From the NCBI GenBank assembly GCA_965225945.1, contig CBDDBZ010000025.1, forward strand, positions 103,994 through 167,993: a DNA stretch of 64,000 bases, written 5' to 3'. The translations under genes were made by a program, and so were the position numbers. The notes beneath the pieces are model-generated. The model had not been told where the DNA came from, did no database searches, and was given only the letters and a program-made list of their open reading frames with translations. This document shows, one piece after another, positions 26,644 through 51,188 of the stretch. Origin of the DNA: Alphaproteobacteria bacterium. Its GTDB lineage: Bacteria > Pseudomonadota > Alphaproteobacteria > GCA-2731375. How positions within the stretch are numbered: position 1 is the stretch's first letter; every line of letters starts with the position of its first letter.

Positions 26644-26670
26644 CATATGGCGGCGCCCGGTGCCTGTCAA
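26644..26670 (-). promoter_or_regulatory. Putative sigma32-type promoter for hpf-ptsN
   Basis: Minus strand TTG-N17-CCATAT overlapping the rpoN stop. Confidence 0.45.
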
Positions 26671-28208
26671 CCAGCCTCCCAAAGCGACGCACGCTTGATT
26701 CGCCGCCGCTGGACGGAAGACGGAATCGCCATCGATTCGCGGTATTTGGCGACGGTGCGCCGCGCGATGTCGGCCCCGGATTCACGCAACAGGGTGACCA
26801 GGCGATCGTCGGAATGCACCGCGCCGCCATCCTCGCCGTCGATCAGCGCCCGGATGCGGTGCTTCACCGCCTCGGCCGAAAGGGCATCGCCCCCCGCCGC
26901 CGAGGCGATCGCCGAGGTGAAGAAATACTTCAGCTCGAAGATCCCTCTGGGCGTCTCGACGTATTTGTTCGAGGTCACCCGCGAGATGGTGCTTTCGTGC
27001 ATCTCGATCGCTTCGGCCACGGTGCGCAAATTGAGCGGACGCAGCAAATCGACACCATGCTCCAGAAAGCCCTCCTGCTGACGGACGATCTCGCTCGAGA
27101 CCTTGAGGATCGTACGGGCTCGCTGGTCGAGCGACTTCACTAGCCAATTGGCGTTGTTGAGGCACTCCGTGAGATAGGCGCGCTCGGTGCTGCCGCGATC
27201 CATGTGGCGGACGAGCGCGCTATAGCGCGCGTTCACCAGCACCCTGGGCAGGGTCTCGGTGTTGAGCTCGATCCGCCAGGCGCCGTCCGGCTCACGGCGC
27301 ACCAGGACGTCCGGCACGATCGGCGCCGCGACCGCGTAATCGAACAGAAGACCCGGCTTGGGGTTAAGGGCGCGAATTTCGCCGATCATCTCCGCCATGT
27401 CCTCGGCGTCGACCGCGCAGAGCCGCCTCAGCGCGTCGAAATCGTGTCGGGCCAGCAAGTCGAGATGGTCCAGCAGCGTCCGCATCGCCGGATCGAGGCG
27501 ATCCCGTTCGCCGAGTTGCAGCGCCAGGCATTCCGCCAGATTGCGCGCGCCGATGCCGATCGGGTCCATCTGTTGCAGCGCGGCCAGCACCGTCTCGACG
27601 CGTCGGGCCGGACAGCCGAGCTTGGCCGCGACTTCGCCGACGTCCTCGGTCAGGTAGCCGGCTTCATCCAGGCTCTCGACCAAATGGGCGCCGATCAGAC
27701 GGTCGACCGGATCCTCCAGGCCGGTGTTGATCTGGCCGAGCAGGTGCTCCTTCAGTAAAATCGCCGCGTCGGGAGCGGCATCGATGCCGCCGCCCTCACC
27801 CTCGTAGTTCCCGCCACCGCCGAGGCCGCTCCAGGCCGCGCGCTCCAGCTCGGCCGCCGCGCCGCCGCCATGTTCGATAGCTTCGCCATGGGTGAAGCCG
27901 TTCTCGTCGTCGGTGTCGAGTGGCGCCTCGGCCTCGGCGGTGCCGCCGGAATAGTCGACGTGGTCGACCTCGATCTCGCCCATCGCCTCGACCGCGCTCT
28001 CGCCACCGCCCGCCCCGGCCGGCGTCTCGCCCTCGACCGCCGGCTCCCCCTCCGCGCGTTCCAGCACCGGATTTTGTTCGAGCTCCCGCTCGACGAAGGC
28101 ATCGAGCTCCAGGTTGGTGAGTTGCAGCAGCTTGATCGCCTGCTGCAACTGCGGCGTCATCACCAGGGACTGGGAGGTACGAAGCTCCTGCTTTTGGGAT
28201 AGCGCCAT
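26667..28208 (-). CDS. rpoN: RNA polymerase sigma-54 factor
   Basis: QSLVMTPQLQQAIKLLQL, HESTISRVT, RpoN box ARRTVAKYRE. Confidence 0.98.
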   Translation of the reverse strand: MALSQKQELRTSQSLVMTPQLQQAIKLLQLTNLELDAFVERELEQNPVLERAEGEPAVEGETPAGAGGGESAVEAMGEIEVDHVDYSGGTAEAEAPLDTDDENGFTHGEAIEHGGGAAAELERAAWSGLGGGGNYEGEGGGIDAAPDAAILLKEHLLGQINTGLEDPVDRLIGAHLVESLDEAGYLTEDVGEVAAKLGCPARRVETVLAALQQMDPIGIGARNLAECLALQLGERDRLDPAMRTLLDHLDLLARHDFDALRRLCAVDAEDMAEMIGEIRALNPKPGLLFDYAVAAPIVPDVLVRREPDGAWRIELNTETLPRVLVNARYSALVRHMDRGSTERAYLTECLNNANWLVKSLDQRARTILKVSSEIVRQQEGFLEHGVDLLRPLNLRTVAEAIEMHESTISRVTSNKYVETPRGIFELKYFFTSAIASAAGGDALSAEAVKHRIRALIDGEDGGAVHSDDRLVTLLRESGADIARRTVAKYRESMAIPSSVQRRRIKRASLWEAG

Positions 28209-29918: not shown

Positions 29919-31841
29919 TCAGGCCCGCGCCTCGTCCGGTGGCCTCGCTTCGCCGACTAATTTAACGACCGCCCCGTCGAGCGCAAGTATCTCTTGCGCC
30001 TTCGAGCCCAGCCGCCTGACCGCGAGCGTGCGCTCGGCGGCCTCGCGACGCCCGATGGCGATGATCAACGGCACCTTGGCCAGGCTGTGTTCGCGGACCT
30101 TGTAGTTGATCTTTTCGTTGCGGAGATCGGTCTCGACGCGAAGGCCAGCCGCCCGGAGCTCGGCCGCGACCTCGGCCGCGAAGTCGTCGCCGTCCCGGGT
30201 GATCGTCGCCACAACCGCCTGCACCGGGGCGAGCCAGAGCGGCAGTCGTCCGGCGTAGTGCTCCACCAGCACGCCGATGAAGCGCTCGAAAGAGCCGAGG
30301 ATGGCGCGATGCAGCATCACTGGGCGGTGCCGCGCGCCGTCCTCGCCGACATAGCTGGCGTCGAGCCGCTCGGGCAGCACGAAATCGACCTGCAGCGTAC
30401 CGCACTGCCAGTCGCGACCGATCGCGTCGCGGAGCACGAAATCGAGCTTCGGGCCGTAGAAGGCGCCGTCGCCGGGGTTCAACTCGTAGGGCAGGCCGGT
30501 GGCCTCCACCGCCTCCTTCAGCGCGGCTTCCGAGCGATCCCAGACCGCGTCGTCGCCCGCCCGCGTCGGCGGCCGGTCGGCGAACTTCACCATCACCTCC
30601 TCGAAGCCGAAATCGCGGTAAATCCCGATCAGCAGATCGCAAAAGGCGGTGCTCTCCGAGGTGATCTGGTCCTCCGTGCAGAAGATGTGCGCGTCGTCCT
30701 GCACGAAGTTGCGGACCCGGAGCAGACCGTGCAGCGCGCCGGAGGGCTCGTAGCGGTGGCAGGAACCGAACTCCGACATCCTGAGCGGCAGGTCGCGATA
30801 GCTCTTGATGCCTTGCCGGAAGATCTGCACGTGGCAGGGGCAGTTCATCGGCTTCAAGGCGAAGGTCCGCCCCTCGGATTCCGAGGTATACATGTGCTCG
30901 CGGAACTTCTCCCAGTGGCCCGAGGCCTCCCAGAGCATGCGGTCGACGAGTTGGGGGGTCTTCACTTCCTGGTAGTCGGCGGCGTCCAGGCGGCGGCGCA
31001 TGTAGTGCTCGCAGGTCCGATAGAGCGTCCAGCCCTTGGGATGCCAGAAGGCCATGCCGGCCGCCTCTTCCTGGAAATGGTAAAGGTCCATCTCGCGGCC
31101 GAGGCGGCGGTGATCGCGTTTTTCGGCCTCCTCCAGGCGAAACAGATAGGCCTCGAGTTCCTTTTCGTCGCGCCAGCAGGTGCCGTAGATTCGCTGCAGC
31201 ATCGGGTTGCGGTGATCGCCCCGCCAATAGGCGCCGGCGAGCTTCGTCAACTTGAAGCCGGTGCCGACCTGGCCGGTCCGCCCGAGGTGCGGGCCCCGGC
31301 AGAGGTCGACGAAATCACCTTGGCTGTAGAGCGAGATGATCTCGCCCTGGGGAATTTCTGCGATGATCTCGGCCTTGTAGTGCTCGCCGATCGATTTGAA
31401 GTATTCGATCGCGCGGTCCCGCTCCCATTCCATGCGCTGAATCGTCTCGTCGCGGGCGACGATTTCGCGCATGCGCGCCTCCAGCGCCACCAAATCGTCC
31501 GGCGTGAAGGGCGTCTCGCGGGCGAAGTCGTAATAGAAGCCGTCCTCGATCGCCGGGCCGATGGTGACCTGCAGGTCGGGCCAGAGCTCCTTCGCCGCCT
31601 CCGCCAGGACATGGGCGCAGTCGTGGCGCAGGATCTCCAGCGCCTCCTCGGCCGGCCGCGTGATGATCTCGATCGGGGCATCGGCCTCGATCGGCCGCTC
31701 GAGGTCGACCAGCTCGCCGTCGACGCGCGCGACCAGGGCATCGCGGGCGAGATCGGCACCGATATCGGCCGCGACCCGCGCGGCCGTCACCGGGCCGTCG
31801 TAATCCGTGATGCTGCCGTCGGGCAGCGTAATCGCGACCAT
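29919..31841 (-). CDS. thrS: Threonine--tRNA ligase
   Basis: TGS domain, [54 protein letters not shown]. Confidence 0.98.
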
Positions 31842-32028: not shown

Positions 32029-33336
32029 ATGGCGCGGGATCTGGCGGCGATCGCCAAGCAGCAGGGCATCAAGTATTTTCTGATCAGCTTCGTCGATTTG
32101 TTCGGCGGGTTGCGCGCCAAGCTGGTCCCGGCGCGCGCGATCGCCGATATGCAGGCCTCGGGCGCCGGTTTTGCCGGTTTTGCCGCCTGGCTCGACATGA
32201 CGCCGGCGGATCCCGACATGTTCGCCGTTCCCGATCCTGAGAGCCTGATCCAACTCCCCTGGAAGCCCGAGGTGGGTTGGCTGGCGGCCGATCTCTGGAT
32301 GGACGGGGTCGAGGTCGAGGCCTCTCCCCGGGTGGCGCTGAAGCGCCAGGTCGCCCGGGCCGCCGAGTCCGGATACCGGATGAAATCGGGCGTCGAGTGC
32401 GAATATTTTCTGATGTCGCCGGACGGCCGGTCGATCTCCGATCCCTTCGACACCCAGGAAAAGCCCTGCTACGACCAGTCGGCCCTGATGCGGCGCTACG
32501 ACGTCGTCTCCGAGATTTGCGACCACATGATCGAGCTCGGCTGGGAGCCCTATCAGAACGATCACGAAGACGCCAACGGCCAGTTCGAGATGAACTGGGA
32601 CTACGACGATTGCCTGACGACGGCCGATCGCCACGTCTTCTTCAAATACATGGTGAAGGCGGTGGCCGAGACGCACGGCTTTCGCGCCACCTTCATGCCG
32701 AAGCCCTTCGTCGACCTCACGGGCAACGGCTGCCACGCCCACATCTCGCTCTGGAACAGAAACGGGCGGCGCAACCTGTTCCTCGACGACAAGGACGAGA
32801 TGGGCCTTTCGGCCACCGCCTATAACTTTCTGGGCGGAATCATCCACTCGGCCGAGGCGCTCTGCGCGATCTTCAACCCGACCGTCAACAGCTACAAGCG
32901 GCTCAACGCCGCTCCGACGCTCTCCGGTGCCAGCTGGTCGCCGAACGCGGTCTCCTATTCCGGCAACAACCGCACCCACATGATCCGCATTCCCGATCCC
33001 GGCAGGTTCGAGCTTCGGCTGATGGACGGCGCCGCCAACCCCTACCTGTTGCAGGCGGGCGTGCTCTGCGCCGGTCTCGACGGCATCGCCAATGAACGCG
33101 ATCCGGGCAAGCGCCTCGACATCAATATGTACACCGACGGTCACAAGGTCCGGGGCCTGAAGCGGCTGCCGCTGACGCTGCACGACGCGCTCCGTATCGC
33201 CGAGAAGTCCAAGGTGCTGCGCCAAGGGCTGGGCGCGCCGGTGATGGATGCCTATCTCAAGCTCAAGATGGCGGAATGGCACCGCTTCACCCTGCACTTG
33301 AGCGAGTGGGAGCGCCAGAACACCCTGGACATCTGA
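32029..33336 (+). CDS. glnT: Type III glutamate-ammonia ligase GlnT / gamma-glutamylmethylamide synthetase-like
   Basis: GIKYFLISFVDLFG..RAKLVP, KPCYDQSALMRRYD, YQNDHEDANGQFEMNW, TFMPKPF, GNNRTHMIR. Confidence 0.85.
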   Translation: MARDLAAIAKQQGIKYFLISFVDLFGGLRAKLVPARAIADMQASGAGFAGFAAWLDMTPADPDMFAVPDPESLIQLPWKPEVGWLAADLWMDGVEVEASPRVALKRQVARAAESGYRMKSGVECEYFLMSPDGRSISDPFDTQEKPCYDQSALMRRYDVVSEICDHMIELGWEPYQNDHEDANGQFEMNWDYDDCLTTADRHVFFKYMVKAVAETHGFRATFMPKPFVDLTGNGCHAHISLWNRNGRRNLFLDDKDEMGLSATAYNFLGGIIHSAEALCAIFNPTVNSYKRLNAAPTLSGASWSPNAVSYSGNNRTHMIRIPDPGRFELRLMDGAANPYLLQAGVLCAGLDGIANERDPGKRLDINMYTDGHKVRGLKRLPLTLHDALRIAEKSKVLRQGLGAPVMDAYLKLKMAEWHRFTLHLSEWERQNTLDI

Positions 33337-33423: not shown

Positions 33424-34374
33424 ATGGCGATGAGCAACGTCACGATCTTCGGTGGCTCCGGCTTCCTCGGTCGCCATCTCGTCAAGCGGCTGGCCGGGAA
33501 GGGGGTGCGGGTCCGGGTCGCGGTTCGCGATCCGGAAGCGGCGGCCTTTCTGCAACCGATGGGCGATGTCGGCCAGATCGCCGCCGTCCGGGTCAACATT
33601 CGCGATGCCACCAGCACCCGCCGCGCCGTCCTGGGCGCGGACGCGGTGGTCAACGCCGTCGGCATCCTGTATCAATTCGGCGCCCAGCGCTTCGAGGCGA
33701 TCCACCATCAGGGCGCCTGCAACGTCGCCGAGGCGGCCCGCGCCGAGGGCGTGCGGCGCTTCATCCACGTTTCCGCCATCGGCGCCGACGCCGAGAGCAC
33801 GTCGATCTACGCCCGCACCAAGGGGCTCGGCGAACAGGCCGTGGCGGCGATCGATTCGGCCACGACGATCGTGCGCCCCTCGGTCGTCTTCGGGCCGGAG
33901 GACGACTTCTTCAACCGCTTCGGCGCCATGGCGCGCCTCTCGCCGGTCCTGCCGCTGCCCGGCGGCGGCCATACCCGCTTCCAGCCGGTCTACGTCGGCG
34001 ACGTCGCCGAGGCGATCGTGAGCATTCTGCAGGACGGCGCCACCAGCGGCCTCAGCTACGACCTGGGCGGCCCCCGGGTGCACAGCTTCAAGGAGCTGAT
34101 GGAGCTGGTGCTGGAGGTTACGGGACGCAAGCGGCTGCTGGTGCCGGTGCCGCTCGCGATCCTCAAGTTGCAGGCGACCTTCCTGCAGCTTCTGCCGGTG
34201 CCGCCGTTGACCCGCGACCAGGTCGAGCTGCTGAAATACGACAACGTCTGCGGGGACGGCGCGCCGGGCCTCGTCGATCTCGGCGTCGAGCCGACGGCGG
34301 CCGAGGCGATCCTGGAGAGCTACATGTACCGCTACCGCCGCTCCGGCAAGCTGGCCGGATCGCGTTTCGCCTGA
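33424..34374 (+). CDS. Complex I NDUFA9-subunit family SDR protein
   Basis: TIFGGSGFLGR, LQPMGDVGQI, SAIGAD, YARTK, RPSVVFGPED.FFNRF, FQPVYVGDVA. Confidence 0.93.
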   Translation: MAMSNVTIFGGSGFLGRHLVKRLAGKGVRVRVAVRDPEAAAFLQPMGDVGQIAAVRVNIRDATSTRRAVLGADAVVNAVGILYQFGAQRFEAIHHQGACNVAEAARAEGVRRFIHVSAIGADAESTSIYARTKGLGEQAVAAIDSATTIVRPSVVFGPEDDFFNRFGAMARLSPVLPLPGGGHTRFQPVYVGDVAEAIVSILQDGATSGLSYDLGGPRVHSFKELMELVLEVTGRKRLLVPVPLAILKLQATFLQLLPVPPLTRDQVELLKYDNVCGDGAPGLVDLGVEPTAAEAILESYMYRYRRSGKLAGSRFA

Positions 34375-34651
34375 TCGGCGGGGGCGAGAGGGCCCGGGCG
34401 CGAAGCGATCGCCATGCTGGATTCCGTCCTGACATTTCTGCTGGGCATGCTCGGCACGCCCGCGCCGAGGCCGCCGCGGGGCTCGTCGAGGCGCTGCTCC
34501 GAGCGGGCTGAGTTCGGCTTGCCCGGCCGCTCCTCGGCGACATCGCCGCTGCCTCCCCCACTTGCCACCGTCAATTCCGAGCCCTGGCGAGGGGCCTGGC
34601 GAGGGGCTGAGCGTCTGGCCGTCGCCGAGGTTCGCTTCGACCCGCCTGGCC

Positions 34652-34680
34652 TTGACAGGGCTTCGGGGCCGCCCCTATAT
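34652..34680 (+). promoter_or_regulatory. Putative sigma70 promoter of tRNA-Ala
   Basis: TTGACA-N17-CTATAT. Confidence 0.6.
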
Positions 34681-34738
34681 CCGGATCGCGCCGGGCCGGC
34701 GGGCGAGCCGCCCGATGTCGGCGGCGTGGATGGCGGAT

Positions 34739-34814
<76 letters not shown>

Positions 34815-35078
34815 GCCCCGCCGGACCACCGGACGCGGATCTGCCGTCCAGCGAAATTGCCTCTATATTTCAGTTACTTGCGCCAATATCGCCGGCCATT
34901 TCGGGGCAGAGAGACGGCGCATTTGCGGGATTCCTCTCGGAATTCGGAGACCGTCTCCGTTGGCGCTTTCCGGTAGCCCCACTTTTCAGTGGATACCGGC
35001 GGGGGTGGGTCAGGCGAAGCCGAGTAATCGGCGCTGATCGACCCATTTCGGTGGCACTCTGCCGAGGCGCGCCTTTCT

Positions 35079-36188
35079 CTAATGAAAGCAACCGCGCGCG
35101 GCGATGGGCCACACGGCCTCGACCCGGCCGTCGCGGACGCAGACGTAGTGGTCCCAACGATCGGTCATGGAGTCCTGGTGGCCGCTCGAGAGCAGAAACT
35201 GTTCGCCGAGCTCGAGCCCCCTCTTGCCGCTCGTTCGGAGCGTGATGTGCTCCTCGTGCAATGCCTCGACCGCGACGCCGTCCCGTCCCTCGACCCGTGG
35301 CCAGGCGCGGAAGCCGAGCGCGCGGGTGCCGACGTCGCCGATCGCGATGCCTGGGCGCGGCGTGCTGATGACGGTCGCCAGGACCTTGGCGGCGATCTGG
35401 AACTCGCGCATGTAGTCGAAGGAATGGCTCATCAGCATGTAGGTGCCGCCCTCGACCTCGGTGATGCCGGGCATCGTCGCCGCGATGTCGTAGGAGAAGG
35501 TCTCGCCCGAGGAGACGACCTCGACCGCGATGCCCTCGGCCTCGATCGCCGCCTTGACGTCGAGGCACATGGCCATGAAGGGGACGCCGTCGCGGATCCG
35601 GGTCTCGCGGTCGGGTTTTCCAGGGAGCGTCTGGTGGCTCATCACGCCCTTGAAGGCGATTGAGGGAAGTGCGTTGGCCAGTTTTGCCAGCGCAACGCCC
35701 TTCTCGATCCCGCCCTGATCAGCCCAGCGGACGCCTGCCCGCCGCGCCGAGGTCGCGACCTCGACCACGACGCCGATGATGACGCCGTGGCGTTCCGCCG
35801 CCCGGGAGAGTTGGCGGAGGTTCTCCGCGTCGTCGACCGCGACCCGGAGCGTGGCGCGCCTCGCCAGCGCCGCCAGGCGCTCGATCTTGTCCGCGCCGAC
35901 GATCTGGTTGGCGATCAGGACGTTCTGGATGCCGCCCTCTACCATCACCTCGGCCTCCGAGACCTTGGCGCTGCATATTCGCTCGTCGGTGCCGCCGGCG
36001 CGGAACTGCATGTGGGCGATGATCGGGCATTTGGTGTTCTTCACGTGATGGCCCATCTTGCAAACCGTGTCGCGGTAGGTCTCGGCCACGACCCGCTGGT
36101 TGTGTTCGAGCGCCGCCATGTCGATCAGCAGGCAGGGTGTGTCGAGTTCCGCCAGCGGCGTGCCGATCGGCGGTCGATAGGAGTCCAT
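35079..36188 (-). CDS. DSD1/D-threonine aldolase-like fold-type III PLP enzyme (Lys retained)
   Basis: LDTPCLLID, HVKNTKCP, AKVSEAEV, IANQIVG, EEH, GHQD, W.IAARG. Confidence 0.85.
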   Translation of the reverse strand: MDSYRPPIGTPLAELDTPCLLIDMAALEHNQRVVAETYRDTVCKMGHHVKNTKCPIIAHMQFRAGGTDERICSAKVSEAEVMVEGGIQNVLIANQIVGADKIERLAALARRATLRVAVDDAENLRQLSRAAERHGVIIGVVVEVATSARRAGVRWADQGGIEKGVALAKLANALPSIAFKGVMSHQTLPGKPDRETRIRDGVPFMAMCLDVKAAIEAEGIAVEVVSSGETFSYDIAATMPGITEVEGGTYMLMSHSFDYMREFQIAAKVLATVISTPRPGIAIGDVGTRALGFRAWPRVEGRDGVAVEALHEEHITLRTSGKRGLELGEQFLLSSGHQDSMTDRWDHYVCVRDGRVEAVWPIAARGCFH

Positions 36189-36218
36189 GATGATCCTCTC
36201 TTCGTTGCGCGAGCCACC

Positions 36219-37352
36219 TCAGCGATAGCGGCCGCGCGCGCTGATGTCCCAGACCGCCTCCAGGCGCCCGTCCAGGTGGGCATGTGCGAAATCGTGCAGG
36301 TTGGCGCACATGCCGGCATCGGAGGGCACGAGGAGGGCCTTGCTGCCGTGCCGAATCGCGCCGTCGAGTGGTTCCGCGAAGTTCAGCTCGCCGTGCTCGG
36401 CCGACATCATGGCTTCGTTGACGTGAGCGGTGGGCGCCGCGGCGAGGCCGAGGATCCGCTCGAGCCGCGCCGGCCCGGCGTCCATGCCGACGGCCTTGAC
36501 GCCCGCGTCGGTGATGGCGACGCCGGGCTCGGGCCGGCTGACGACGCTGGCGAGCACGTGGGCCGCGGGCCAGAGCTCGGCGCGGATGTCCTGGTAGCGC
36601 CCGTCCATCAGGGCATAGGCGCCGGCTGGCACTTCGCTCACTCCGTCCATGGCGCCGACGATCTCGTAGTTGTGGCTGGCGCCGAGGCTCACCACCTCGA
36701 CCTCGATGCCGGCTCGCTCGACCAACGCGCGGCTGTCGAGGAGCTTCTCGAGGCAGGCGCGCGTCTCCGCGGTCCGTGCCTCGGCATCGGGATCGAGGAT
36801 CGGGCCCTCGTAGCTCGCGAGACCGCGGAAATCGAGGTTCGAAGCCGCCGCCGCCCGCTCGGCGAGCGCCAGCACCGGCGCGCCCGGCGCCACGCCGCAG
36901 CGGCCGAGGCGGGTGTCGACCTCCACCAGCACGCCGATCTCGACGCCGGCCGCAATGGCCGCCTCGGAGAGTTGGGCGAGGTTTCGCGCATTGTCGAGCG
37001 CGACGGCCACGCGCGCCCGGCGCGCCAGGGCCGAGAGCCGCTCGATCTTCGGCGCCGTCACGACCTGGTTGGCGATCGCGATGTCGTCGATGCCGGCGGC
37101 GGCGAACACTTCCGCCTGGCCGAGGGTGCCGACGGAGATGCCGCCGACGGTGCCGCCGGCGGCCAGTTGGCGGTGCGCGATGGCGGGGCAGCGGTGGGCC
37201 TCGACATGCGGGCGAAGCTTGGCCGGGCGGTCGCGGAAGAAGCCGTGCACCGTCTCGATGTTGTGCTCGAGCGCGGCGAGGTCGATCAGCAGCGAGGGGG
37301 TGTCGAGCGCCTCGAGTGGCGTTCCGACGGGCTTGAAGAGGGGGCGTTCCAT
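36219..37352 (-). CDS. DSD1/D-threonine aldolase-like paralogue lacking the PLP lysine
   Basis: LDTPSLLID, RPHVEAHRCP (K to E), RCGV, SYEG, GAYALMD, SAEHG, PSDAG where PxHxC/D is expected. Confidence 0.85.
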   Translation of the reverse strand: MERPLFKPVGTPLEALDTPSLLIDLAALEHNIETVHGFFRDRPAKLRPHVEAHRCPAIAHRQLAAGGTVGGISVGTLGQAEVFAAAGIDDIAIANQVVTAPKIERLSALARRARVAVALDNARNLAQLSEAAIAAGVEIGVLVEVDTRLGRCGVAPGAPVLALAERAAAASNLDFRGLASYEGPILDPDAEARTAETRACLEKLLDSRALVERAGIEVEVVSLGASHNYEIVGAMDGVSEVPAGAYALMDGRYQDIRAELWPAAHVLASVVSRPEPGVAITDAGVKAVGMDAGPARLERILGLAAAPTAHVNEAMMSAEHGELNFAEPLDGAIRHGSKALLVPSDAGMCANLHDFAHAHLDGRLEAVWDISARGRYR

Positions 37353-37368
37353 CGGCGCTTCGCGCGGC

Positions 37369-38751
37369 TCAGTCCTGCCCGCCGGCGGTCGCGGCGAGGG
37401 AGCCGGAGTTGGTGAAGTCCAGGTGCCTCGGGTGGCCGTCGAGGGCGCGGCGGACGGCGCTCTCCAGGCGGCCGACCGCCTCGTCGATCTCCGCCTCGGT
37501 GATCACCAGGGCCGGGCAGATGCGGATGAAGTTCTTGACCGCGATCAGCACCAGCCCCTCCTGAAGCGCGTTGTAGCGGATTCGCTCCGCCATCGCGGGG
37601 TCGGGCCGCCGGCCGCCGCCGGGCGCGACGATGTCGAGCATCCAATAGAGGCCCCGGCCGCGCACGTCGCCGATCGGCTCGAATTCGTCAGCCAGCTGGC
37701 GAAGCCGGCGCTCCATCACCGTGCCCAGGCGGGCGGCGCGACCGGCGTAATCGTCGCGCAACACGATCTGCAACTGCTTCAGCGCGACGGCGGCCGGCAG
37801 CGGGTCGCCCGAATAGGTCCCGGCCCAGGGCAGGCCCGCCTTGCCGCGCGATTCCTCCGCGATTTCGCGCGTCGTCACCGTGCCAGCGATGCCGAGGCCT
37901 GCCGTCATGCCCTTGCCGAAGGTGACGACGTCCGGCACCACGCCATCCCTCTGGAAGCCCCACATGTGGCCGGTCTTGGCCGGCGCCAACTGCGCCTCGT
38001 CCAGCACCAGCAGCGCGCCCCAGCGGGCCGCCAGATCCTTCAATCGCGCGAGCCATTCGCCCGGCGGCACCACCATGCCGCCCGCGACCGGGATGGTCTC
38101 GGCCAGGATCGCCGCGATGTTCCGGCTGGTGACGTGCTCCATCAGCTCTTCGCTCGCCGCCAGGCAGGCGATGTCACAGGCCGGGTATTCCAGGTTGATC
38201 GGGCAGCGATAGCACAAGGGCGCATAGATGGCGTTGCGGTGGGCCGGCAGCATCAGCGGCCCGAGCCCGGCCTTGCGGCCGCCGCCGACGCTGGTCACCG
38301 CCTCGGCCGCCAGGCTGCCGCCGTGCAGGCCCCGGATGAGCGAGACCATGTCGTACTTGCCGGTGACGCCCAAGGCCATCCGCATGGCGATCTCGTTCGC
38401 CTCCGAGCCGGTGACGGCGAAGTTCACCACGTCCAGCCCCTGCGGCAGGGTCGAGGCGATCAGCTCGGCGAATTCCACCAGCCAGGGATTGGAGAACCAG
38501 GAGGACTGATGCACCAGGCGTTCGGCCTGGGCCTTGATCTCTTCCGTCAGCTCCGGGTGGCCATGGCCCAGCACCATGCACATCATGCCGGCGGTCATGT
38601 CGACATAGTCGTTGCCGTCGACGTCGGTGAGGTGGATGCCGTGCCCGCCCGAGAACATGATCCGGGGCTCGTAGCGCCAGCCGATGATGTGTTCCTCGTC
38701 CCGCGCCATCAAGTCGTGGTGGGCGTTGGAAAACTGGAATTCGCTGGTCAT
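37369..38751 (-). CDS. Class-III PLP aminotransferase
   Basis: DVDGNDYVD, LGHGHP, TGSEANE, LDEAQ, PDVVTFGKG, GDVRGRGL; ATGA overlap with hyuB-like gene. Confidence 0.9.
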   Translation of the reverse strand: MTSEFQFSNAHHDLMARDEEHIIGWRYEPRIMFSGGHGIHLTDVDGNDYVDMTAGMMCMVLGHGHPELTEEIKAQAERLVHQSSWFSNPWLVEFAELIASTLPQGLDVVNFAVTGSEANEIAMRMALGVTGKYDMVSLIRGLHGGSLAAEAVTSVGGGRKAGLGPLMLPAHRNAIYAPLCYRCPINLEYPACDIACLAASEELMEHVTSRNIAAILAETIPVAGGMVVPPGEWLARLKDLAARWGALLVLDEAQLAPAKTGHMWGFQRDGVVPDVVTFGKGMTAGLGIAGTVTTREIAEESRGKAGLPWAGTYSGDPLPAAVALKQLQIVLRDDYAGRAARLGTVMERRLRQLADEFEPIGDVRGRGLYWMLDIVAPGGGRRPDPAMAERIRYNALQEGLVLIAVKNFIRICPALVITEAEIDEAVGRLESAVRRALDGHPRHLDFTNSGSLAATAGGQD

Positions 38752-40442
38752 GGCGTCTCGTCCTCCTCGGTTGCCTCGCCGCGGGGATAGCCGTAGTCGC
38801 GCTTGGCGCCCTCGGGCGTCACGTAGCCGTCCGCCAGGTCGGCCAGAATCGCCGCCGCCGGGCGCTCCCCGGGCTTGCCGTGGCCGCCGCCGCCCGGGCA
38901 GCGGAGGCTGAGCCGCTGGCCGGAATGAAAAGCGACGTTGGGCGAGCTGGTGGGGGGAATCGGCTCGCCGTCGACCGAGATGCGGCCGAGTCCGCCGGCG
39001 CCGCCGCCGAAGAGACCCAAGGGGCCCGCCGCCATGCGTCCGGCCGAACCCGAGAGAATGAGCGGCACCGCGGCGTCGACGTCGCCATGGCCGGCCAGCA
39101 CCAGCTCTTCGCCGAGGCCGCCGCGCCAGCGCCCCGGGCCGCCCGAATCGGCGATCAGCTCGCGCCGCTCGAACAGCACCGGCGTCTCGACCTCCGACCA
39201 TTCGATCGAGACGTCGCGCACGTTGTAGGGGAAGCTGATCGAGGCGAGGCCGTCGCGCCCGGGCCGGCCGCCCATCCCGCCGAAGGCGTGCTGATGCAGC
39301 GCGAACAGCTCGCCGTTTCGCCTGACACCGTTGACGTAGAACTGCCAAGTGGGTAGCGAGCCGGATTCCGCCGGCGCGCGGTCGGGCGCGATGTCGGCCA
39401 GGATGCGGAACATCAGGTCGGAGACCAGCATGCCCGCGGCGAGCCGCCAGAAGCAGGCCGCCGGATAGGTCGGGTTCAACAGGCAGCCCTCGGGCGCTTG
39501 AATTCGCATCGGCAGATAGGTGCCCTCGTTGTTGGGCAGTTCCGGGTCGCAAACCATCTTCATCGGCACCGCGACATAAGCGCGGGTGTAATTCATCGGG
39601 CAATTTACCGGCCGGCGGACCTGGCGCGAGGTGCCGGCGAGGTCGACGGCGATTTCGTCCCCTTCGATCGCCAGTTCGAGCGCGATGGTCGGGCGCTCGT
39701 CCAGTCCCTCGATCTCCAGCGTGGTCTCGCGCCGGTGCCGGCCGTCGGGGAGCGAGGCGATGCCGCGGCGCATGCCGGCCTCGGTGCGGCGGATGATCTC
39801 GTCGGCAACCGGCAAGAGGGAGGGCAGGCGGAACTCCCGCGCCAGCGCCTCCATGGCGCCGGCGCCGATCCAGCCGGCGGAGACCTGAGCCCGGATGTCG
39901 CCGATCATCATCTCGGAGAAGCGCACGTTTCGCCGCAGCAGCTGGAACAGATCCTGGTTCGCCCGGCCCTCGGCATAGAGGCGGAGCATGGGAATGATCA
40001 GACCTTCCTCGTAGACCTCTTCGGCGAGGCCCGAGCCCTTGCGCCCGCCGATGTCGACGTGATGCACGCTGTTGACCGAGAAGCCGATGAACCTCTCGTC
40101 GAGGAACGCCGGCGTGGCGATGAAGACATCGGCGGTCTGCCCGTTGCAGAGCCAGGGGTCGTTGCAGATGAAGACGTCGCCCGGACGGATCGTCTCGGGC
40201 GGAAAGGCCGCCATCAGGTTCTTGCCGAACACGGGCATCACGCCCGTGTGGCCGGTGGCGCCGAGCCAGGTCTGGGCGATCAAATTGCCGCGGGCATCGC
40301 AGAGCCCGGTCGACATGTCGTGGACCTCGATCACGTCGTGAGAGAAGGCGGTGCGGAACAGCGTCGTCGCCATCTCGTCGGCGATGGCGATGAGACGCGG
40401 CCAGATGATCTCCAGCGGCAGTTCGGTCGGTGGAGCGTTCAT
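38748..40442 (-). CDS. Hydantoinase B/oxoprolinase family protein
   Basis: RTAFS, PGDVFICNDPW, HHVDIGG, EEGLIIP, GGMGGR, DSGGPGRWRGG, PGGGG. Confidence 0.92.
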   Translation of the reverse strand: MNAPPTELPLEIIWPRLIAIADEMATTLFRTAFSHDVIEVHDMSTGLCDARGNLIAQTWLGATGHTGVMPVFGKNLMAAFPPETIRPGDVFICNDPWLCNGQTADVFIATPAFLDERFIGFSVNSVHHVDIGGRKGSGLAEEVYEEGLIIPMLRLYAEGRANQDLFQLLRRNVRFSEMMIGDIRAQVSAGWIGAGAMEALAREFRLPSLLPVADEIIRRTEAGMRRGIASLPDGRHRRETTLEIEGLDERPTIALELAIEGDEIAVDLAGTSRQVRRPVNCPMNYTRAYVAVPMKMVCDPELPNNEGTYLPMRIQAPEGCLLNPTYPAACFWRLAAGMLVSDLMFRILADIAPDRAPAESGSLPTWQFYVNGVRRNGELFALHQHAFGGMGGRPGRDGLASISFPYNVRDVSIEWSEVETPVLFERRELIADSGGPGRWRGGLGEELVLAGHGDVDAAVPLILSGSAGRMAAGPLGLFGGGAGGLGRISVDGEPIPPTSSPNVAFHSGQRLSLRCPGGGGHGKPGERPAAAILADLADGYVTPEGAKRDYGYPRGEATEEDETP

Positions 40443-42532
40443 GCCGTCCCCCCTTCCTCGATCTCGATGAGAAGCGAGCCCAGCTCGTCGACCTCGACCC
40501 GGGCGCCCTGGTCGACGACGGTGGTGGTCGAGGATTCCTCGATGATCGCCGGCCCTTCGAAGCGCATGCCGGGCGCCAGGCTTTCGCGGCTGTGCACGGC
40601 AAAGGGGATCCGCTTTCCCGCCACCGCCGAATAGGCGTCGCGCGTGCCGGTCTTCGTGGCACCGCCCGCTACCGGCGCCGCCGCGCGAAGCGTCGGTGCC
40701 GGGACCCGGAGGCGGCCACGCAGATGCAGGTCAACCAGCTCGGCCGGGACGTCGTCGTAGAAGTAGCCGTACTTCTCCCGGTAGATCCGGGCGAAGCGAT
40801 CCCAGAGCGCCTCGCCGTCCAAGGGCGCGTCGTCGAGCAGCACCGTCACCTGATAGCCCTGGCCGATGTAGCCGATCTCGGCGGCGCGGATGAATTCTAT
40901 CTCGGACTCGGCGTCGATCTGGCGCAGCATCGCCTCGATCTCGGTCCGGAGTTCGGCGAACACCGCCTCCGCCGCCCTCGCTTCCAGGCGGGCGAGCGGC
41001 GTCTTGATCGTCCGCGCGAGATCGAAGGCGGCCGGCGCGATCAACAGGCCGAGGGCCGAGAGCACGCCGGCCCGCAGCGGCACCAGGATCCGCCGCATCG
41101 AGAGCTTGCGTGCCAGGTGGTCGGCGTGCATGGGCCCGGCGCCACCGAAGGCGACGAGGAGGGCTCGATCGGGCGTCCCGCCCCGCTCGCTCGCGTGCAT
41201 GCGGACGGCGGCGGCCATCGCCTCGTCGACGACGTTGCGCACGGTCCAGGCGTCGGCCAGCACATCACGGCCGGACTTGGCGCCAAGATGGTCGCGCAGC
41301 GCGCGCGCCGCCGCCTCGACGTCGAGCGCCATCCGTCCGCCGGCGAAGCGCGCCGGGTCGAGATAGCCGAGGACGACGTCGGCGTCGCTCACCGTCGGCC
41401 GCTCACCACCCTGGCCGTAGCAGGCGGGGCCCGGGTCTGCGCCGGCGCTCTCTGGCCCGACCTGCACCAGGTCGAGGGAGTTGACGAAGGCGATGGAGCC
41501 GCCGCCGGCGCCGATCTCGATCATGTCGACGGCCGGCACGGCGACGGGAAAGCCGCTCGACTTGGTGAAGCGCCGGGAGCGGGCCACTTCCAGCTGGTCG
41601 GTGATCGGCAGCGCGCCCGCCCGGATCAGGCAGGCCTTGGCCGTGGTGCCACCCATGTCGAAGGAGATCACTTCGTCCTCGCCCATCAGTTCGGCGAAAT
41701 GGCGGCCGACGATGGCGCCGGCGACGGGGCCGGACTCGATCAGGCGAACGGGAAAGGCACCGGCCGTCTCGGCCGAGGCGATGCCGCCGGTCGACAGCAT
41801 GATGCGGAGCGGGGCGCGGTATCCGGCGTCCGCCAGGCTCCGGTCGAAGCGATTGAGATAGCCGCGTGCCATCGGCTTGACGTAGGCATTGACGACGGCG
41901 GTGCTGGTCCGCTCATATTCCTTGATTCGGGGCAGCACCGCGGCCGAAGTGGTGATCTCCACCTCCGGCAGCAGCGCCGCGAGGGTTTCGGCAGCCGCCT
42001 GTTCGTTCGCCGGATTGACGTAGGCATGCAGAAAGGCGATCGCCACGCTCTCGATTCCCGCCGCCCGCAATTGCTCGGCGAACTTGGAGATTTCGTCCCG
42101 CTCGACGGGCTTCAGCACGGTGCCGTCGGCCGCCGTGCGCTCGTCGACGCCCAGGCGCAGGCGTCGCGGAACCAGCGGTTCGGGCGGGTCTTCCCACAAT
42201 TCATAGGTCGTGACCCGGACGTGGCGGCGGAGCTCCAGGACGTCGCGAAAGCCCTTGGTCGTCAACAGCGCCGTCCGTGCGCCCTTGCGCTCGATCACCG
42301 TATTGGCGATCAGCGTCGTCGCGTGCGCGATTCTTCGGGTGTACGCCACGTGGTCCGGGTCGACCGCATCGAAAGCGCCGAGGCCGGCGAGCGCGCCGGC
42401 TGAGGGATCCTCGGGCGTGGTCAACCGCTTTTCGATATGCAGCGCGCCGCTCGCCTCGTCGTACAGGACGAAGTCCGTGAAGGTGCCGCCAATATCGCAG
42501 GCGACACGGTAGCGCGCGCTTCCCCGGTCCAT
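40439..42532 (-). CDS. Hydantoinase A/oxoprolinase family protein
   Basis: DIGGTFTD, HATT, EYERTST, ESGPVAG, DMGGTTAK, IGAGGGS, GPESAGADPGPACY. Confidence 0.93.
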   Translation of the reverse strand: MDRGSARYRVACDIGGTFTDFVLYDEASGALHIEKRLTTPEDPSAGALAGLGAFDAVDPDHVAYTRRIAHATTLIANTVIERKGARTALLTTKGFRDVLELRRHVRVTTYELWEDPPEPLVPRRLRLGVDERTAADGTVLKPVERDEISKFAEQLRAAGIESVAIAFLHAYVNPANEQAAAETLAALLPEVEITTSAAVLPRIKEYERTSTAVVNAYVKPMARGYLNRFDRSLADAGYRAPLRIMLSTGGIASAETAGAFPVRLIESGPVAGAIVGRHFAELMGEDEVISFDMGGTTAKACLIRAGALPITDQLEVARSRRFTKSSGFPVAVPAVDMIEIGAGGGSIAFVNSLDLVQVGPESAGADPGPACYGQGGERPTVSDADVVLGYLDPARFAGGRMALDVEAAARALRDHLGAKSGRDVLADAWTVRNVVDEAMAAAVRMHASERGGTPDRALLVAFGGAGPMHADHLARKLSMRRILVPLRAGVLSALGLLIAPAAFDLARTIKTPLARLEARAAEAVFAELRTEIEAMLRQIDAESEIEFIRAAEIGYIGQGYQVTVLLDDAPLDGEALWDRFARIYREKYGYFYDDVPAELVDLHLRGRLRVPAPTLRAAAPVAGGATKTGTRDAYSAVAGKRIPFAVHSRESLAPGMRFEGPAIIEESSTTTVVDQGARVEVDELGSLLIEIEEGGTA

Positions 42533-42629
42533 TCGTTCCCCTCTCCAGGGTGGAATTGTGACCGCGAAACGGCCCCGGGGCAATTCACGCCCGCTTGCCC
42601 GGCGTCGTCGGCTTCGACAAGATCGAGCG

Positions 42630-44708
42630 ATGGCATCGGACGCGAGGGCGGGGAGCGGCGGATCGGCGGCGGGCGGACGCCGCGTCGACATCGCCGTCGA
42701 CATCGGCGGCACCTTCACCGACGTGGTCGGCTGGGACGGTGCCCGCTTTCACCTCGCCAAGGTCTCCAGCCGGCCGGACCGGCCGGCCGATGCGGTCGTC
42801 GAGGGGATCGACATCCTGCTGCGCTCCGCCGGCCTCGAGCCCGCCCGCGTGCGTCGCTTCGTCCACAGCACGACGATCGCGACCAACGCGGTGCTCGAGC
42901 GCAAGGGCGCCAAGGTCGGCCTCTTGATGACCGAGGGGTTCGAGGACGTGTTGGAGATCGGACGGCAGAAGCGCTCGGCCATGTACGAGCTGTTCCTGGA
43001 GCCCGAGACCCCCGGCTTCATCGCGCCCGGGCGACGGCGCGCCGGCATTCGCGAGCGGATCGACGCTGACGGCCAGATCACCGTGCCCCTCGACGAAGAG
43101 GGCGTCATCCGGGCAACGAGACGCCTGGTCGAGGAAGAAAATATCGAGGCGATCGCCGTCTGCTATCTCTTCTGCTTTCGCAATCCGGCGCACGAACGGC
43201 GCACGCGGGAGCTCATCCGGGCCCACTGGCCCGAGATGCCGATCTCGCTGTCGTTCGAGATCGACCCGGTGTTCCGCGAATACGAGAGGACCTGCGCCAC
43301 GGCGTTCGACGCCTATGTCAGACCGGTGATGGTCGGCTACCTGGAGCGCCTGGGCGGCGCGCTCAAGGCGCGCGGCATCGCCGCGCCAATCGAAATAATG
43401 CAGTCGGGCGGCGGCGTCGCCTCGTTCCGCCAGGCATTGGAGCGCCCGGTGTCGAGCCTACTCTGCGGCCCGGCGGCGGGCGCGGTGGGTGGCTCGGTGG
43501 CGGGCGGCCTCGCGGGCCACGCGAACCTCGTCACCATCGACATCGGCGGTACCAGCACCGACGTCGCCATCGTGCTCGATGGCCGGTTGGAGCCGTCGCG
43601 CGAGGGGCGGATCGGCGGCTATCCCCTGCGCGTACCCATGGTCGGCGTCCACACGATCGGCGCCGGCGGCGGCAGCATCGCGCGCCTCGACGAGGCCGGC
43701 GCGCTCAAGGTCGGACCGGAAAGCGCCGGCGCCGAGCCCGGGCCGATCTGCTATGGCCGAGGCGGACGCGAGGTCACGGTCACCGACGCCAGCCTGGCGC
43801 TCGGCTATCTCCACCCCGACTGGTTCGCCCGCGAATTGAGCCTGGAGCAAGCGGGGAGCGAGGCGGCGCTCGGCGACCTCGCCGCGCGGATGGAGATGGC
43901 GCCGCTGGCGGCCGCGCTGGGCATCCACACGGTGGTGAACGCGGCGATGACCGACGCGATCCGCGCGCTCACCGTGGAGCGCGGCCACGACCCCCGCGAT
44001 TTCGCGCTGGTGGCCCTGGGCGGCGCCGGCCCGTTGCACGGCGGCGCCATCGCCGAGGCCCTGGGTATCGCCACCGTGATCGTGCCGCCGCGCCCCGGCG
44101 TGCTCGCCGCGGAAGGCCTGCTGCACGCGCCGATCGTGGCGGAGGCCTACCGGACCTTCGCCGTGCCCGCAGAGACGGCGACGGCCTCGGGCATCGACGA
44201 CGTCTTCGCCGAACTGGCGACACAGGTCAGCGACGAACTCCGGCGCGACGGCCACGATCCCGCCGAGGCGACACTCGCCCACGCGGCCGACATGCGCTAC
44301 CTGGGCCAGTCCTACGAGATCGAGGTGCCGCTCGCCACCATCGACGGCGCCATCGAGACCTTTCGTCGGCGCTATCGTCGCCTGCACGGGCACGCCAGCG
44401 CCGAAGATCCGGTCGAGTTCGTCAATCTGCGCGTGAGCGCCACGATCCGGCCGCCCGAGATCTCGATGTGCAACGCCGAGGTCGGCGCCGGGCGCGAGGC
44501 CGCGGAAGTCGGTCCGGTCTGCTTCGATCCCGTCGAAGGGATGATCGCGGTTCCCTTTCACCGCCGCAATTCACTCGGCGCCGGCAGCACGCTGGACGGC
44601 CCGGCGGTCATCGTTCAGGGTGACACCACAACGCTGCTGCGGCCCCGCCACCGCTTGCGGGTCGATCCCATCGGTAATTTGATCATCACCCTGGACGGGG
44701 CGACATGA
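42630..44708 (+). CDS. Hydantoinase A/oxoprolinase family protein
   Basis: DIGGTFTD, HSTTIATN, REYER, DIGGTSTD, IGAGGGS, GPESAGAEPGP, DMRYLGQSYE. Confidence 0.93.
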   Translation: MASDARAGSGGSAAGGRRVDIAVDIGGTFTDVVGWDGARFHLAKVSSRPDRPADAVVEGIDILLRSAGLEPARVRRFVHSTTIATNAVLERKGAKVGLLMTEGFEDVLEIGRQKRSAMYELFLEPETPGFIAPGRRRAGIRERIDADGQITVPLDEEGVIRATRRLVEEENIEAIAVCYLFCFRNPAHERRTRELIRAHWPEMPISLSFEIDPVFREYERTCATAFDAYVRPVMVGYLERLGGALKARGIAAPIEIMQSGGGVASFRQALERPVSSLLCGPAAGAVGGSVAGGLAGHANLVTIDIGGTSTDVAIVLDGRLEPSREGRIGGYPLRVPMVGVHTIGAGGGSIARLDEAGALKVGPESAGAEPGPICYGRGGREVTVTDASLALGYLHPDWFARELSLEQAGSEAALGDLAARMEMAPLAAALGIHTVVNAAMTDAIRALTVERGHDPRDFALVALGGAGPLHGGAIAEALGIATVIVPPRPGVLAAEGLLHAPIVAEAYRTFAVPAETATASGIDDVFAELATQVSDELRRDGHDPAEATLAHAADMRYLGQSYEIEVPLATIDGAIETFRRRYRRLHGHASAEDPVEFVNLRVSATIRPPEISMCNAEVGAGREAAEVGPVCFDPVEGMIAVPFHRRNSLGAGSTLDGPAVIVQGDTTTLLRPRHRLRVDPIGNLIITLDGAT

Positions 44709-44709
44709 G

Positions 44710-46485: not shown

Positions 46486-46640
46486 ACGCCCACCACCAGC
46501 AGGCGCGCATTTGACCCGGGTCGCCCCATCACCCTACCATTTGAGGCACTTCGCTCAATCGACAAGATCGCCACTGCAACTTCGCAGCAACGCAGGCGCA
46601 TCGGAACCAGGTTTCGATGCGCCTTACAGGGGAGGGACCC

Positions 46641-47843: not shown

Positions 47844-47935
47844 GCCGCCTCGGCGCCTTCGGTTCGACCTATGTCGGCGAGTGAGGGCGTGACGTGCGCC
47901 AAGGGCATCGGGCCCCGCCGAGCGAGGCGGGGCTG

Positions 47936-48691
47936 ATGCTCGAGGTGCGCGACGTCACCAAGCGTTTCGGGGGCCTCGTCGCCGTCTCCTCGGTCGGCTT
48001 CGAGGTGCCGGACGGCCGCATCATCTCGCTGGTGGGGCCGAACGGTGCCGGCAAGACCACCCTCTTCAACGTGATCTCGGGCGTCTTTCCGGCCGACGAG
48101 GGGCGCATCGTCTTCGACGGCGACGACGTGACGGGCGTGCCCTCGCACCGGCTCGCCGCCCGGGGGCTGGCGCGGACCTTCCAGAACGTGCGGCTGTTTT
48201 CCCACCTGAACGCGTTGGAGAACGTGATGGTGGGGCGGACCTGCCGCAATTCCTCCGGCGTCTGGGACGCCCTGCTGTGGCTGAAGCGCGATAGGGCCGA
48301 CCGGCGCCAGGCGATGGAGCGGGCGGCGGAGCTGCTGGACTGGGTCGGCGTCGTCTCGCCCGGCCACGTGATGCCGAATGAGCTGCCCTACGGCGACCAG
48401 CGTCGGGTGGAGATCGCCCGTGCCCTGGCGACGGAGCCGAAACTGCTGATCCTCGACGAGCCGACGGCCGGCATGATCGCCAGCGAGGCGCACGAGATCG
48501 TCACCCTCATGGGCCGCCTGGTCGAGACCGGGATCACCCTGCTGCTGATCGAGCACAACATGAACGTGGTGATGTCGGTCTCGGACAACATCGTCGTGCT
48601 CAACTTCGGCGAGCGGATCGCCGAGGGTCCGCCGGCCGAGATCCAGAAGGACCCCCGCGTCATCGAGGCCTATCTCGGGGCGGACGAATGA
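47936..48691 (+). CDS. LivG-like ABC ATP-binding protein
   Basis: FGGLVAV, GPNGAGKTT, RTFQN, LPYG, LDEPTAG, IEH, V.EAYLG; alternative GTG start at 47894. Confidence 0.93.
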   Translation: MLEVRDVTKRFGGLVAVSSVGFEVPDGRIISLVGPNGAGKTTLFNVISGVFPADEGRIVFDGDDVTGVPSHRLAARGLARTFQNVRLFSHLNALENVMVGRTCRNSSGVWDALLWLKRDRADRRQAMERAAELLDWVGVVSPGHVMPNELPYGDQRRVEIARALATEPKLLILDEPTAGMIASEAHEIVTLMGRLVETGITLLLIEHNMNVVMSVSDNIVVLNFGERIAEGPPAEIQKDPRVIEAYLGADE

Positions 48692-49410: not shown

Positions 49411-49420
49411 AGGAGACGGC

Positions 49421-50290: not shown

Positions 50291-50299
50291 GGACGTGAT

Positions 50300-51178: not shown

Positions 51179-51188
51179 GGCATCCACC

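Follow-up and report, generated by a model that had tools for sequence, protein, structure and literature searches.

A conserved tandem gene pair of the D-threonine aldolase/D-serine dehydratase family probably encodes a heterodimer of one lysine-bearing and one lysine-less chain

Two adjacent genes in the genome of an Alphaproteobacteria bacterium (lineage GCA-2731375; assembly GCA_965225945.1, contig CBDDBZ010000025.1, positions 103,994 to 167,993 of the forward strand) encode paralogous proteins of the D-threonine aldolase/D-serine dehydratase family, P0001 and P0002, of which only P0001 has the lysine that binds pyridoxal phosphate (PLP) as a Schiff base. The 64,000 nucleotides (nt) between these positions, at their full length, are called the window below. 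With a probability of about 0.78, we propose that P0001 and P0002 form an obligate head-to-tail heterodimer with one composite PLP site, because the two genes are paired across genomes, diverge together and are under purifying selection, and because their pocket and loop residues are conserved in a complementary manner. From these patterns we infer physical binding of the two chains and one PLP per dimer. The features of the pair are as follows (aa, amino acids; AxDTA, the D-threonine aldolase of Alcaligenes xylosoxidans, structure 4v15).

36219..37352, - strand: P0002, putative lysine-less subunit, 377 aa; PF01168 and PF14031 with a degenerate PLP pocket; best solved relative 4v15 (E 1.8e-60)
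35079..36188, - strand: P0001, lysine-bearing and presumed catalytic subunit, 369 aa; PF01168 and PF14031; best solved relative 6qkb (E 9.9e-50)
36189..36218, - strand: spacer of 30 nt between P0002 and P0001, with an AGAGGA ribosome-binding motif ahead of the P0001 ATG, read directly from the sequence
37200..37202, - strand: codon for Glu51 of P0002 at the position of the PLP Schiff-base lysine (AxDTA Lys59), by 4v15 alignment and codon check
36312..36320, - strand: D345-A-G347 of P0002 at the metal-ligand position His347-x-Asp349 of AxDTA, by 4v15 alignment
36492..36509, - strand: putative trans loop 1 of P0002, D282-A-G-V-K286-A, corresponding to AxDTA 293-298, by conservation and predicted interface
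36390..36407, - strand: putative trans loop 2 of P0002, M-S317-A318-E319-H320-G, corresponding to AxDTA 319-324, by conservation and predicted interface
36030..36047, - strand: H48-V-K50-N-T-K53 of P0001, the PLP Schiff-base lysine motif, with H48, K50 and K53 present in 29 of 29 partners
35172..35180, - strand: H337-Q-D339 of P0001, the metal-site motif, with D339 present in 29 of 29 partners

Both proteins score above the gathering thresholds of the Pfam models Ala_racemase_N (PF01168; E 2.6e-17 in P0001, 9.3e-22 in P0002) and D-ser_dehydrat (PF14031; E 4.5e-12 and 2.8e-11), the former covering an N-terminal barrel domain and the latter a C-terminal beta-domain, and both can be aligned end to end with 4v15 and 6qkb. 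They are 41% identical to each other over 374 columns (BLASTP, E 8e-75) and have the N-terminal GTPL..LDTP.LLID and the C-terminal EAVW.I.ARG in common; the source databases name both genes 'D-serine deaminase-like PLP protein'. The Schiff-base lysine of the R-P-H-x-K-x-H-K motif is present once per pair, as K50 in P0001, while P0002 has E51 in its place. In P0002, Glu51 (RPHVEAHR) is aligned on Lys59 of 4v15 and D345-A-G347 on His347-x-Asp349, and the motifs RCGV (R151), YEG (Y181) and EHG (E319-H320) are kept. P0001 retains Lys50 (HHVKNTK) and H337-Q-D339, and it diverges at RRAGV and at SHQ, where the family has YxG. The first-pass annotation of this DNA had described two adjacent minus-strand paralogues with shared termini, one with lysine replaced by glutamate at a codon near 37200 and DAG at the metal site, the other intact at both places and divergent elsewhere; every motif that it listed is present, and its description needs no correction. 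A further paralogue in the same genome (L002, G000:C23:12335-13417) keeps the lysine, though in an unusual motif (RSVTKGHK), and its stacking residue (His) and metal site (Y-H-G) are unusual as well.

The assignment of roles to the two chains is based on the architecture of AxDTA. According to the AxDTA structure paper (PMC4401734), the active site lies mainly in the barrel of one protomer, which provides Lys59, Tyr187, Gln249, Arg157, His347 and Asp349, and is completed by loops 295-298 and 319-323 of the second protomer. We mapped these positions by hand from the 4v15 and 6qkb alignments and profiled them in 29 gene pairs. In the lysine-bearing partners of these pairs, pocket residues K50, H48, K53, R150, H185, G248 and D339 are invariant (29/29) and A74 is nearly so (28/29), while their own trans loops are relaxed, with R289 retained in 23 partners, H311 in 10, E312 in 8, E313 in 15 and H314 in 21. 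The lysine-less chains display the opposite pattern. Their trans-loop residues D282, G284, K286, A318, E319 and H320 are found in 29/29 chains and S317 in 27/29, and their pockets have drifted: the five commonest residues in the former lysine column are Glu (11), Asp (4), Thr (4), Ser (4) and Gly (3), Arg151 is kept in 19/29 and Tyr181 in 15/29, the first metal position is occupied by Asp (16), Glu (7), Asn (4) or Ser (2), and the third mostly by Gly (19), Ala (4) or Ser (3). The phosphate cup is partly kept (T/S226 25/29, G244 28/29, Y/H253 23/29). Over all scans the former lysine column of lysine-less chains contains E, D, T, S, G, A, H, N, Q and occasionally K. In 21 single-gene relatives the pocket residues K, H, K, R, Y, T, G and Y and the loop residues D, G, K, E and H are each present in 21/21 proteins, within one chain. 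In the most diverged pairs the upstream chain is only 23-29% identical to P0002 and its pocket is unrecognisable, with D-x-G-Q-K-A and [ML]-S-A-E-H-[GT] still kept, and loop 2 of the partner has decayed to MYDSYS, MGLDYS or MDASES. The first metal ligand of the partner is itself variable, being Gln in 21, Tyr in 5 and His in 3 of the 29 pairs (QxD in 42, HxD in 6 and YxD in 6 of 54 genome loci).

Such complementary conservation is expected if a single site of the ancestral homodimer survives, composed of the partner barrel and the loops of the lysine-less chain; by this pattern, the dead subunit appears to contribute residues to the active site of the live one. In the proposed mechanism, P0001 would supply the barrel pocket, with Lys50 forming the PLP Schiff base and His48, Lys53, Arg150, His185, Gly248 and Asp339 lining it. 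P0002, having abandoned its own pocket, would lend the beta-domain loops D282-x-G-x-K286 and S317-A-E-H320, which would close the partner pocket and contact the substrate carboxylate. The reciprocal site, made of the P0002 barrel and the P0001 loops, would be dead. The ancestor would have been a homodimer whose gene was duplicated; the two copies would then have lost complementary parts and have since been inherited as a unit. The first-pass annotation had suggested one remodelled active site around the glutamate; this part of its proposal is not supported, since the former lysine column drifts and the other pocket residues decay with it, and the site looks abandoned.

The pairing of the two genes was assessed from both sides. 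A scan with a profile of the lysine-less form, limited to one genome per species, gave 80 loci, 59 of which lack the lysine. A lysine-bearing paralogue lies directly downstream on the same strand at 54 of the 59; three others are cut by a contig end, and two (L040 and L076) have room for a partner and none nearby, so that 54 of 56 testable loci are paired. The genomes of L040 and L076 each carry a lone partner-clade gene elsewhere (E 2.7e-176 and 2.2e-178). The remaining 21 loci keep the lysine, mostly with H-x-C at the metal site, and in no case (0/21) does a paralogue lie next to them. Metagenome contigs were scanned reciprocally with the lysine-bearing partner as the anchor, which also gave 80 loci; 16 of these leave no room upstream and 64 are testable. 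An upstream paralogue on the same strand is found at 62 of these 64, in 59 cases by BLASTP and in three (L159-L161) by a profile hidden Markov model; among the 59, two upstream paralogues keep the lysine (L116 and L123) and four are cut before the lysine column. We also surveyed 121 genomes drawn evenly from the class of one pair-bearing metagenome-assembled genome (MAG), some of them shared with the 80-locus genome scan. Seven genomes hold the partner type and all seven also hold the lysine-less gene (adjacent in six, unlinked in one); 21 have a single family member, in every case a lysine-bearing canonical gene, and 93 have no family match at E <= 1e-30. Thus, neither gene type was found alone in the genomes that could be checked, and on the question raised in the first-pass annotation, whether a lysine-less gene always neighbours a lysine-bearing partner, the two are neighbours at all but two of the testable genome loci, both of them in genomes that carry the partner elsewhere. 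Among 41 genomes related to that of the window, the pair is present only in the window's own genome and in a congener (G002), which carries it twice, as one identical copy and one of 69% identity.

All four unlinked cases perhaps belong to one subgroup: the partners at L120 and L162, two metagenome loci, have Y-x-D at the metal site, and L040 and L076 cluster with L029, whose partner is also Y-x-D. The genes may have become unlinked in this lineage.

The lysine-less form is not confined to close relatives of P0002. A word-indexed search with P0002 found 1213 proteins at E <= 1e-20, and among the best 120 of these, which are 51-97% identical to P0002, 117 are without the lysine, one (P0064) has it and two are gapped at this column. 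With P0002 included, the same alignment has Glu 91 times at this position, Ala 9, Asp 8, Gly 4, Thr 3, Ser 2 and Val once, and D-x-G takes the place of H-x-D in 102 of 122 aligned sequences. In a search of 1.84 billion cluster representatives, a profile of 29 lysine-less sequences matched 2472 family members at E <= 1e-30; of the 150 best of these 2472, 25 are without the lysine, 120 have it and five are gapped. By these counts, the lysine-less form is a clade with no fewer than about two dozen clusters at 50% identity, and in the genome scan it was found in several phyla. The ratio of nonsynonymous to synonymous substitution rates (dN/dS, NG86) for 47 locus pairs, which overlap and are not independent and which include no relative of the window's own pair, as none falls within the usable range, is 0.06-0.24 for the lysine-less gene (two pairs saturated) and 0.02-0.20 for the partner. 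Because 117 of the 120 best homologues are also without the lysine and dN/dS is this low, the loss of the lysine is old and not a recent decay, and the clade is under purifying selection. The first-pass annotation had named retention of the lysine in close homologues as a ground for rejecting its proposal; the count of 117 in 120 gives no such ground.

Three proteins of the upstream clade, P0064 and those at L116 (263-1561) and L123 (1709-2818), have a lysine at the Schiff-base column and have lost the metal site (D-x-E); at L116 and L123 the gene downstream is in each case a normal partner. Reversion or slow decay may account for these three proteins. P0064 is nested inside the lysine-less clade, where the lysine column seems simply to drift. 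At L067 (6360-7109, a Nitrospinota MAG) the lysine-less open reading frame (ORF) is open only over its 3' part, though tblastn covers residues 1-372, which represents a frameshift, a broken gene or an assembly error.

In a quick tree (LG+G4, 82 rows, unrooted for want of an outgroup), the lysine-less clade (SH-aLRT 100) and the partner clade (80) stand apart from the canonical genes, and the subclades of the two paired clades mirror each other. One row, L004_own_c, with a branch length of 6.8, is a mis-picked ORF and was disregarded; the correct ORF at L004 is canonical, with RPHAKTHR and H-C-D. The window's pair is sister to that of L007, a Gammaproteobacteria MAG, inside an otherwise Chloroflexota-dominated clade. 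This placement, together with the rarity of the pair among the window's relatives, suggests that the window lineage acquired the pair by transfer.

The complex of P0001 and P0002, predicted from two alignments, reached an ipSAE of 0.94 (0.94, 0.94 and 0.93 in the separate runs), while the best of three controls gave 0.00; the mark used here is reached by 116 of 157 solved complexes and by 2 of 215 mismatched pairs. Between runs, 93% or more of the contacts are the same, and the partner pLDDT is at least 91. In the predicted interface, residues 50, 74-75, 148-154, 337 and 339-340 of P0001 face residues 282-287 and 317-320 of P0002, an arrangement that in these models corresponds to the head-to-tail dimer of the family. 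Since family homodimers have already been solved, we take this prediction as a likeness and not as proof of binding. The obligate alpha/beta heterodimer with one dead site put forward in the first-pass annotation is thus strongly supported by conserved pairing, co-divergence, purifying selection and complementary conservation at the sequence level, with physical binding as a model prediction.

Several observations weigh against the heterodimer. The three upstream-clade proteins P0064, L116 and L123 still have a lysine at the Schiff-base column, and L120 and L162, known from contigs alone, carry the partner type with no adjacent paralogue. The loci come mostly from Chloroflexota MAGs, many of them close kin, so the counts are not counts of independent events. 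A search for longer proteins with P0002 (E <= 1e-20) found no fused two-domain form, which is weak evidence either way. P0001 keeps R289, E313 and H314 in its own trans loops, and by these residues its homodimer might retain some activity; P0002 keeps R151, Y181, S226, G244 and Y253, and might by these hold PLP or a phosphate ligand non-covalently. Residual homodimer activity is possible because the decay of pocket and loops is incomplete on both sides in the window's lineage. Finally, the high ipSAE may be due to the solved homodimers 4v15 and 6qkb, and none of the controls compares a heterodimer with a homodimer.

Some of these points fit other explanations, one of which has two independent proteins, with P0001 as a self-sufficient homodimeric enzyme and P0002 as a separate non-catalytic binder, sensor or regulator, adjacent only through tandem duplication and a role in the same pathway. 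The homodimers formed by family members (4v15, 6qkb), the trans-loop residues that P0001 still has in the window's lineage and the variable flanking genes, which do not tie the pair to one pathway, all agree with it. We nevertheless consider it unlikely, as it leaves unexplained why it is precisely the trans loops that never vary in the lysine-less chain, why those of the partner decay, why neither type occurs alone in checkable genomes, and why the subclades are mirrored. A heterodimer with two working sites, in which the lysine-less pocket has an allosteric or catalytic role that needs no lysine, such as non-covalent binding of PLP or a phosphorylated ligand, would account for the partly kept phosphate cup and for Glu being commonest at the former lysine position. 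This is very unlikely given that the column drifts, that Arg151 and the stacking Tyr181 are kept in only 19 and 15 of 29 chains, and that pairing persists in the most diverged members, where the whole pocket has decayed. That P0002 is a freshly inactivated duplicate heading for loss is so improbable as to be negligible: the missing lysine favours it and nothing further does, while the homologues at 51-97% identity that share the loss, the low dN/dS, the spread over several phyla and the at least 25 lysine-less representatives among the best 150 all contradict it. The obligate heterodimer with one composite site accounts best for these data in our judgement.

Comparison with known systems places the pair within a familiar fold and apart from characterized enzymes. 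AxDTA has the same two-domain fold-type III architecture (E 1.8e-60 to P0002, 2.2e-48 to P0001) and the same head-to-tail dimer in which two beta-domain loops of one protomer meet the barrel of the other (PMC4401734). In contrast to the pair, it is a homodimer with two equal sites, whereas here the two roles are distributed over two gene products. Its proposed catalytic base His193 is absent from both P0001 and P0002 (K191 and D187 in the two proteins), and the column is variable in both clades. Tyr187 corresponds to His185 in the partner (29/29), Gln249 to Glu (21) or Gln (8), and Gln81 to Ala74, though Ala is also found in 20 of 21 single-gene relatives; Gln occupies the first metal-ligand position in 42 of 54 partners, and His does so in the P0001 of the window. 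Since it lacks the catalytic-base His, and since Gln is the usual first metal ligand of the clade, the pair is unlikely to be a classical D-threonine aldolase. The 3-hydroxy-D-aspartate aldolase BhcC (6qkb; NCBIfam NF045642) is the best solved relative of P0001 (E 9.9e-50), and both proteins match its model; at 215.1 and 221.7 bits versus a curated cut-off of 690, neither is an equivalog, and BhcC is a single-gene enzyme. Judged by these residues and scores, the pair should not be filed as D-threonine aldolase or as BhcC. Eukaryotic-type D-serine dehydratase, named DSD1 in yeast and solved from chicken (3anu), has the same Pfam pair and binds PLP and, in the corresponding position, a metal coordinated by His and Cys; it is only distantly related (E 2.9e-24 and 2.3e-12) and is the product of one gene, and neither protein of the pair has its zinc His-x-Cys site. 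We guess that the reaction is probably PLP chemistry on a D-amino acid or a beta-hydroxy-D-amino acid.

Partnerships of a live and a dead chain exist in other folds. In serine palmitoyltransferase the LCB1 chain has lost the Schiff-base lysine and a single site lies at the LCB1/LCB2 interface. This enzyme resembles the pair in being a PLP-dependent heterodimer of paralogues (PMC3794620), and differs from it as a fold-type I, eukaryotic membrane enzyme with another reaction and non-adjacent genes. The Ser4/Ser5 aminotransferase of Serratia sp. ATCC 39006 is closer in arrangement, with tandem bacterial PLP paralogues of which the lysine-less one forms a complex with the intact one (PMC11726168); it is of fold-type I and Ser4 is truncated at both ends, whereas here the lysine-less chain is of full length and of fold-type III. 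In trypanosomatid deoxyhypusine synthase, a eukaryotic enzyme that does not use PLP, a dead paralogue, the 'prozyme', has to pair with an impaired live one for activity (PMC3663545).

In the window, the pair is located at the end of a minus-strand operon with the order HydA, HydB, class-III aminotransferase, P0002 and P0001, whose upstream members are the following.

40439..42718, - strand: HydA, hydantoinase/oxoprolinase A subunit (PF01968, PF05378, PF19278); longest ORF, with the Pfam match from residue 71 and the true start probably further in
38748..40442, - strand: HydB, hydantoinase/oxoprolinase B subunit (PF02538, E 1.8e-128)
37369..38748, - strand: class-III aminotransferase (PF00202, E 2.4e-75); start codon not fixed, stop 16 nt ahead of the P0002 ATG

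The diverged copy in the congener (L182, G002:C3:1270267-1290000, positions 1038-14500) has the same five genes in the same order at 69% identity, and at L007 HydA and HydB lie divergently upstream of the pair. At L182 the operon is preceded by two amidase genes and followed by response regulator and resolvase genes, which hints at a mobile or duplicated island. The notion of one fixed pathway for the pair was dropped after the flanks of 55 paired loci had been clustered: no family besides the pair itself occurs in more than 16 loci, the commonest flank families being TsaD, enoyl-CoA hydratase, CoA-transferase III, FTHFS, Asp/Glu racemase, NIPSNAP and alpha/beta hydrolase. The first-pass annotation had linked the pair to a product of the upstream hydantoinase and aminotransferase; this link stands for the window, for the diverged copy in the congener and, as regards the hydantoinase genes only, for L007, and it fails at the other paired loci, where flanks are unconserved. 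The link is real for the proteobacterial lineage and is not a property of the gene-pair module.

A promoter scan of 34300-43200 found none, and a terminator-like hairpin at 35115-35095 (- strand) was rejected, as it sits within the 3' end of P0001 and can be put down to chance (6 found, 2.9 expected). Short metatranscriptomic contigs from four runs of three studies (X15 and X16 of P6, X17 of P7, X18 of P8) match parts of both genes of the pair and of the upstream genes with 0-2 differences, and record 2 of X15 (36045-36273) spans the gene junction. They were not counted as expression evidence, since contigs of this kind establish neither that the genes are transcribed nor that they share one transcript, and may stem from carried-over DNA.

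A divergent second cluster on the plus strand (42558-55912) contains another HydA/HydB pair (42558-44708 and 44710-46485), a branched-chain-amino-acid-type ABC transporter (46617-51178), a TauD/TfdA-family dioxygenase (51189-52082), a second class-III aminotransferase (53396-54892) and a HalD-like protein (55067-55912). As a speculation, the TauD-type hydroxylase of this cluster could be a source of beta-hydroxy amino acids. A 207-aa ORF at 34414-35037 (+ strand), convergent with the end of P0001 and free of Pfam matches at E <= 1e-5, may not be a gene. Housekeeping genes flank the region, including those for sigma-54 (26667-28208, - strand), threonyl-tRNA synthetase (29919-31841, - strand) and a glutamine-synthetase-family protein (32029-33336, + strand).

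Searches of the open-access literature turned up no heteromeric or lysine-less protein of the D-threonine-aldolase/D-serine-dehydratase family, and no heteromer of a live enzyme with a dead paralogue in the alanine-racemase fold. Heteromers of this kind are known for a few fold-type I PLP enzymes and some eukaryotic enzymes. The gene-pair module is common in deep-ocean Chloroflexota. For the SAR202 group, a pangenome paper (PMC6946804) describes knowledge of D-amino-acid use by marine microbes as limited, and in it the D-threonine-aldolase/D-serine-dehydratase family is unmentioned, the words 'aldolase' and 'pyridoxal' being absent.

With one chain released from the constraints of a pocket and the other from those of the loops, the pair may have been able to evolve a new reaction. 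Such a reaction is suggested by the changes in the partner pocket, which has an invariant Glu229 and in which His replaces the stacking Tyr, Glu or Gln stands at the pyridine nitrogen and Gln-x-Asp takes the place of His-x-Asp. In its broadest and rather doubtful form, our interpretation would make the pair the first fold-type III PLP enzyme to work as an obligate heterodimer with a pseudo-enzyme, catalyzing a new reaction on D-amino-acid-like substrates and providing SAR202/Dehalococcoidia with a route, widespread and so far unrecognised, for dissolved organic nitrogen of the chirally 'difficult' kind; Proteobacteria would later have received this route along with genes for lactam-opening hydantoinases.

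Pocket residues and trans loops that occur together in every single-gene relative are here split over two genes, and the split is held down to ~25% identity. On the proposed reading, the pair would be a natural example of the transition from a homodimer to an obligate heterodimer by complementary loss. If only one of the two genes were expressed, its product would probably seem inactive, and in metabolic reconstructions of SAR202/Dehalococcoidia the pair is counted as two enzymes although it is probably a single one.

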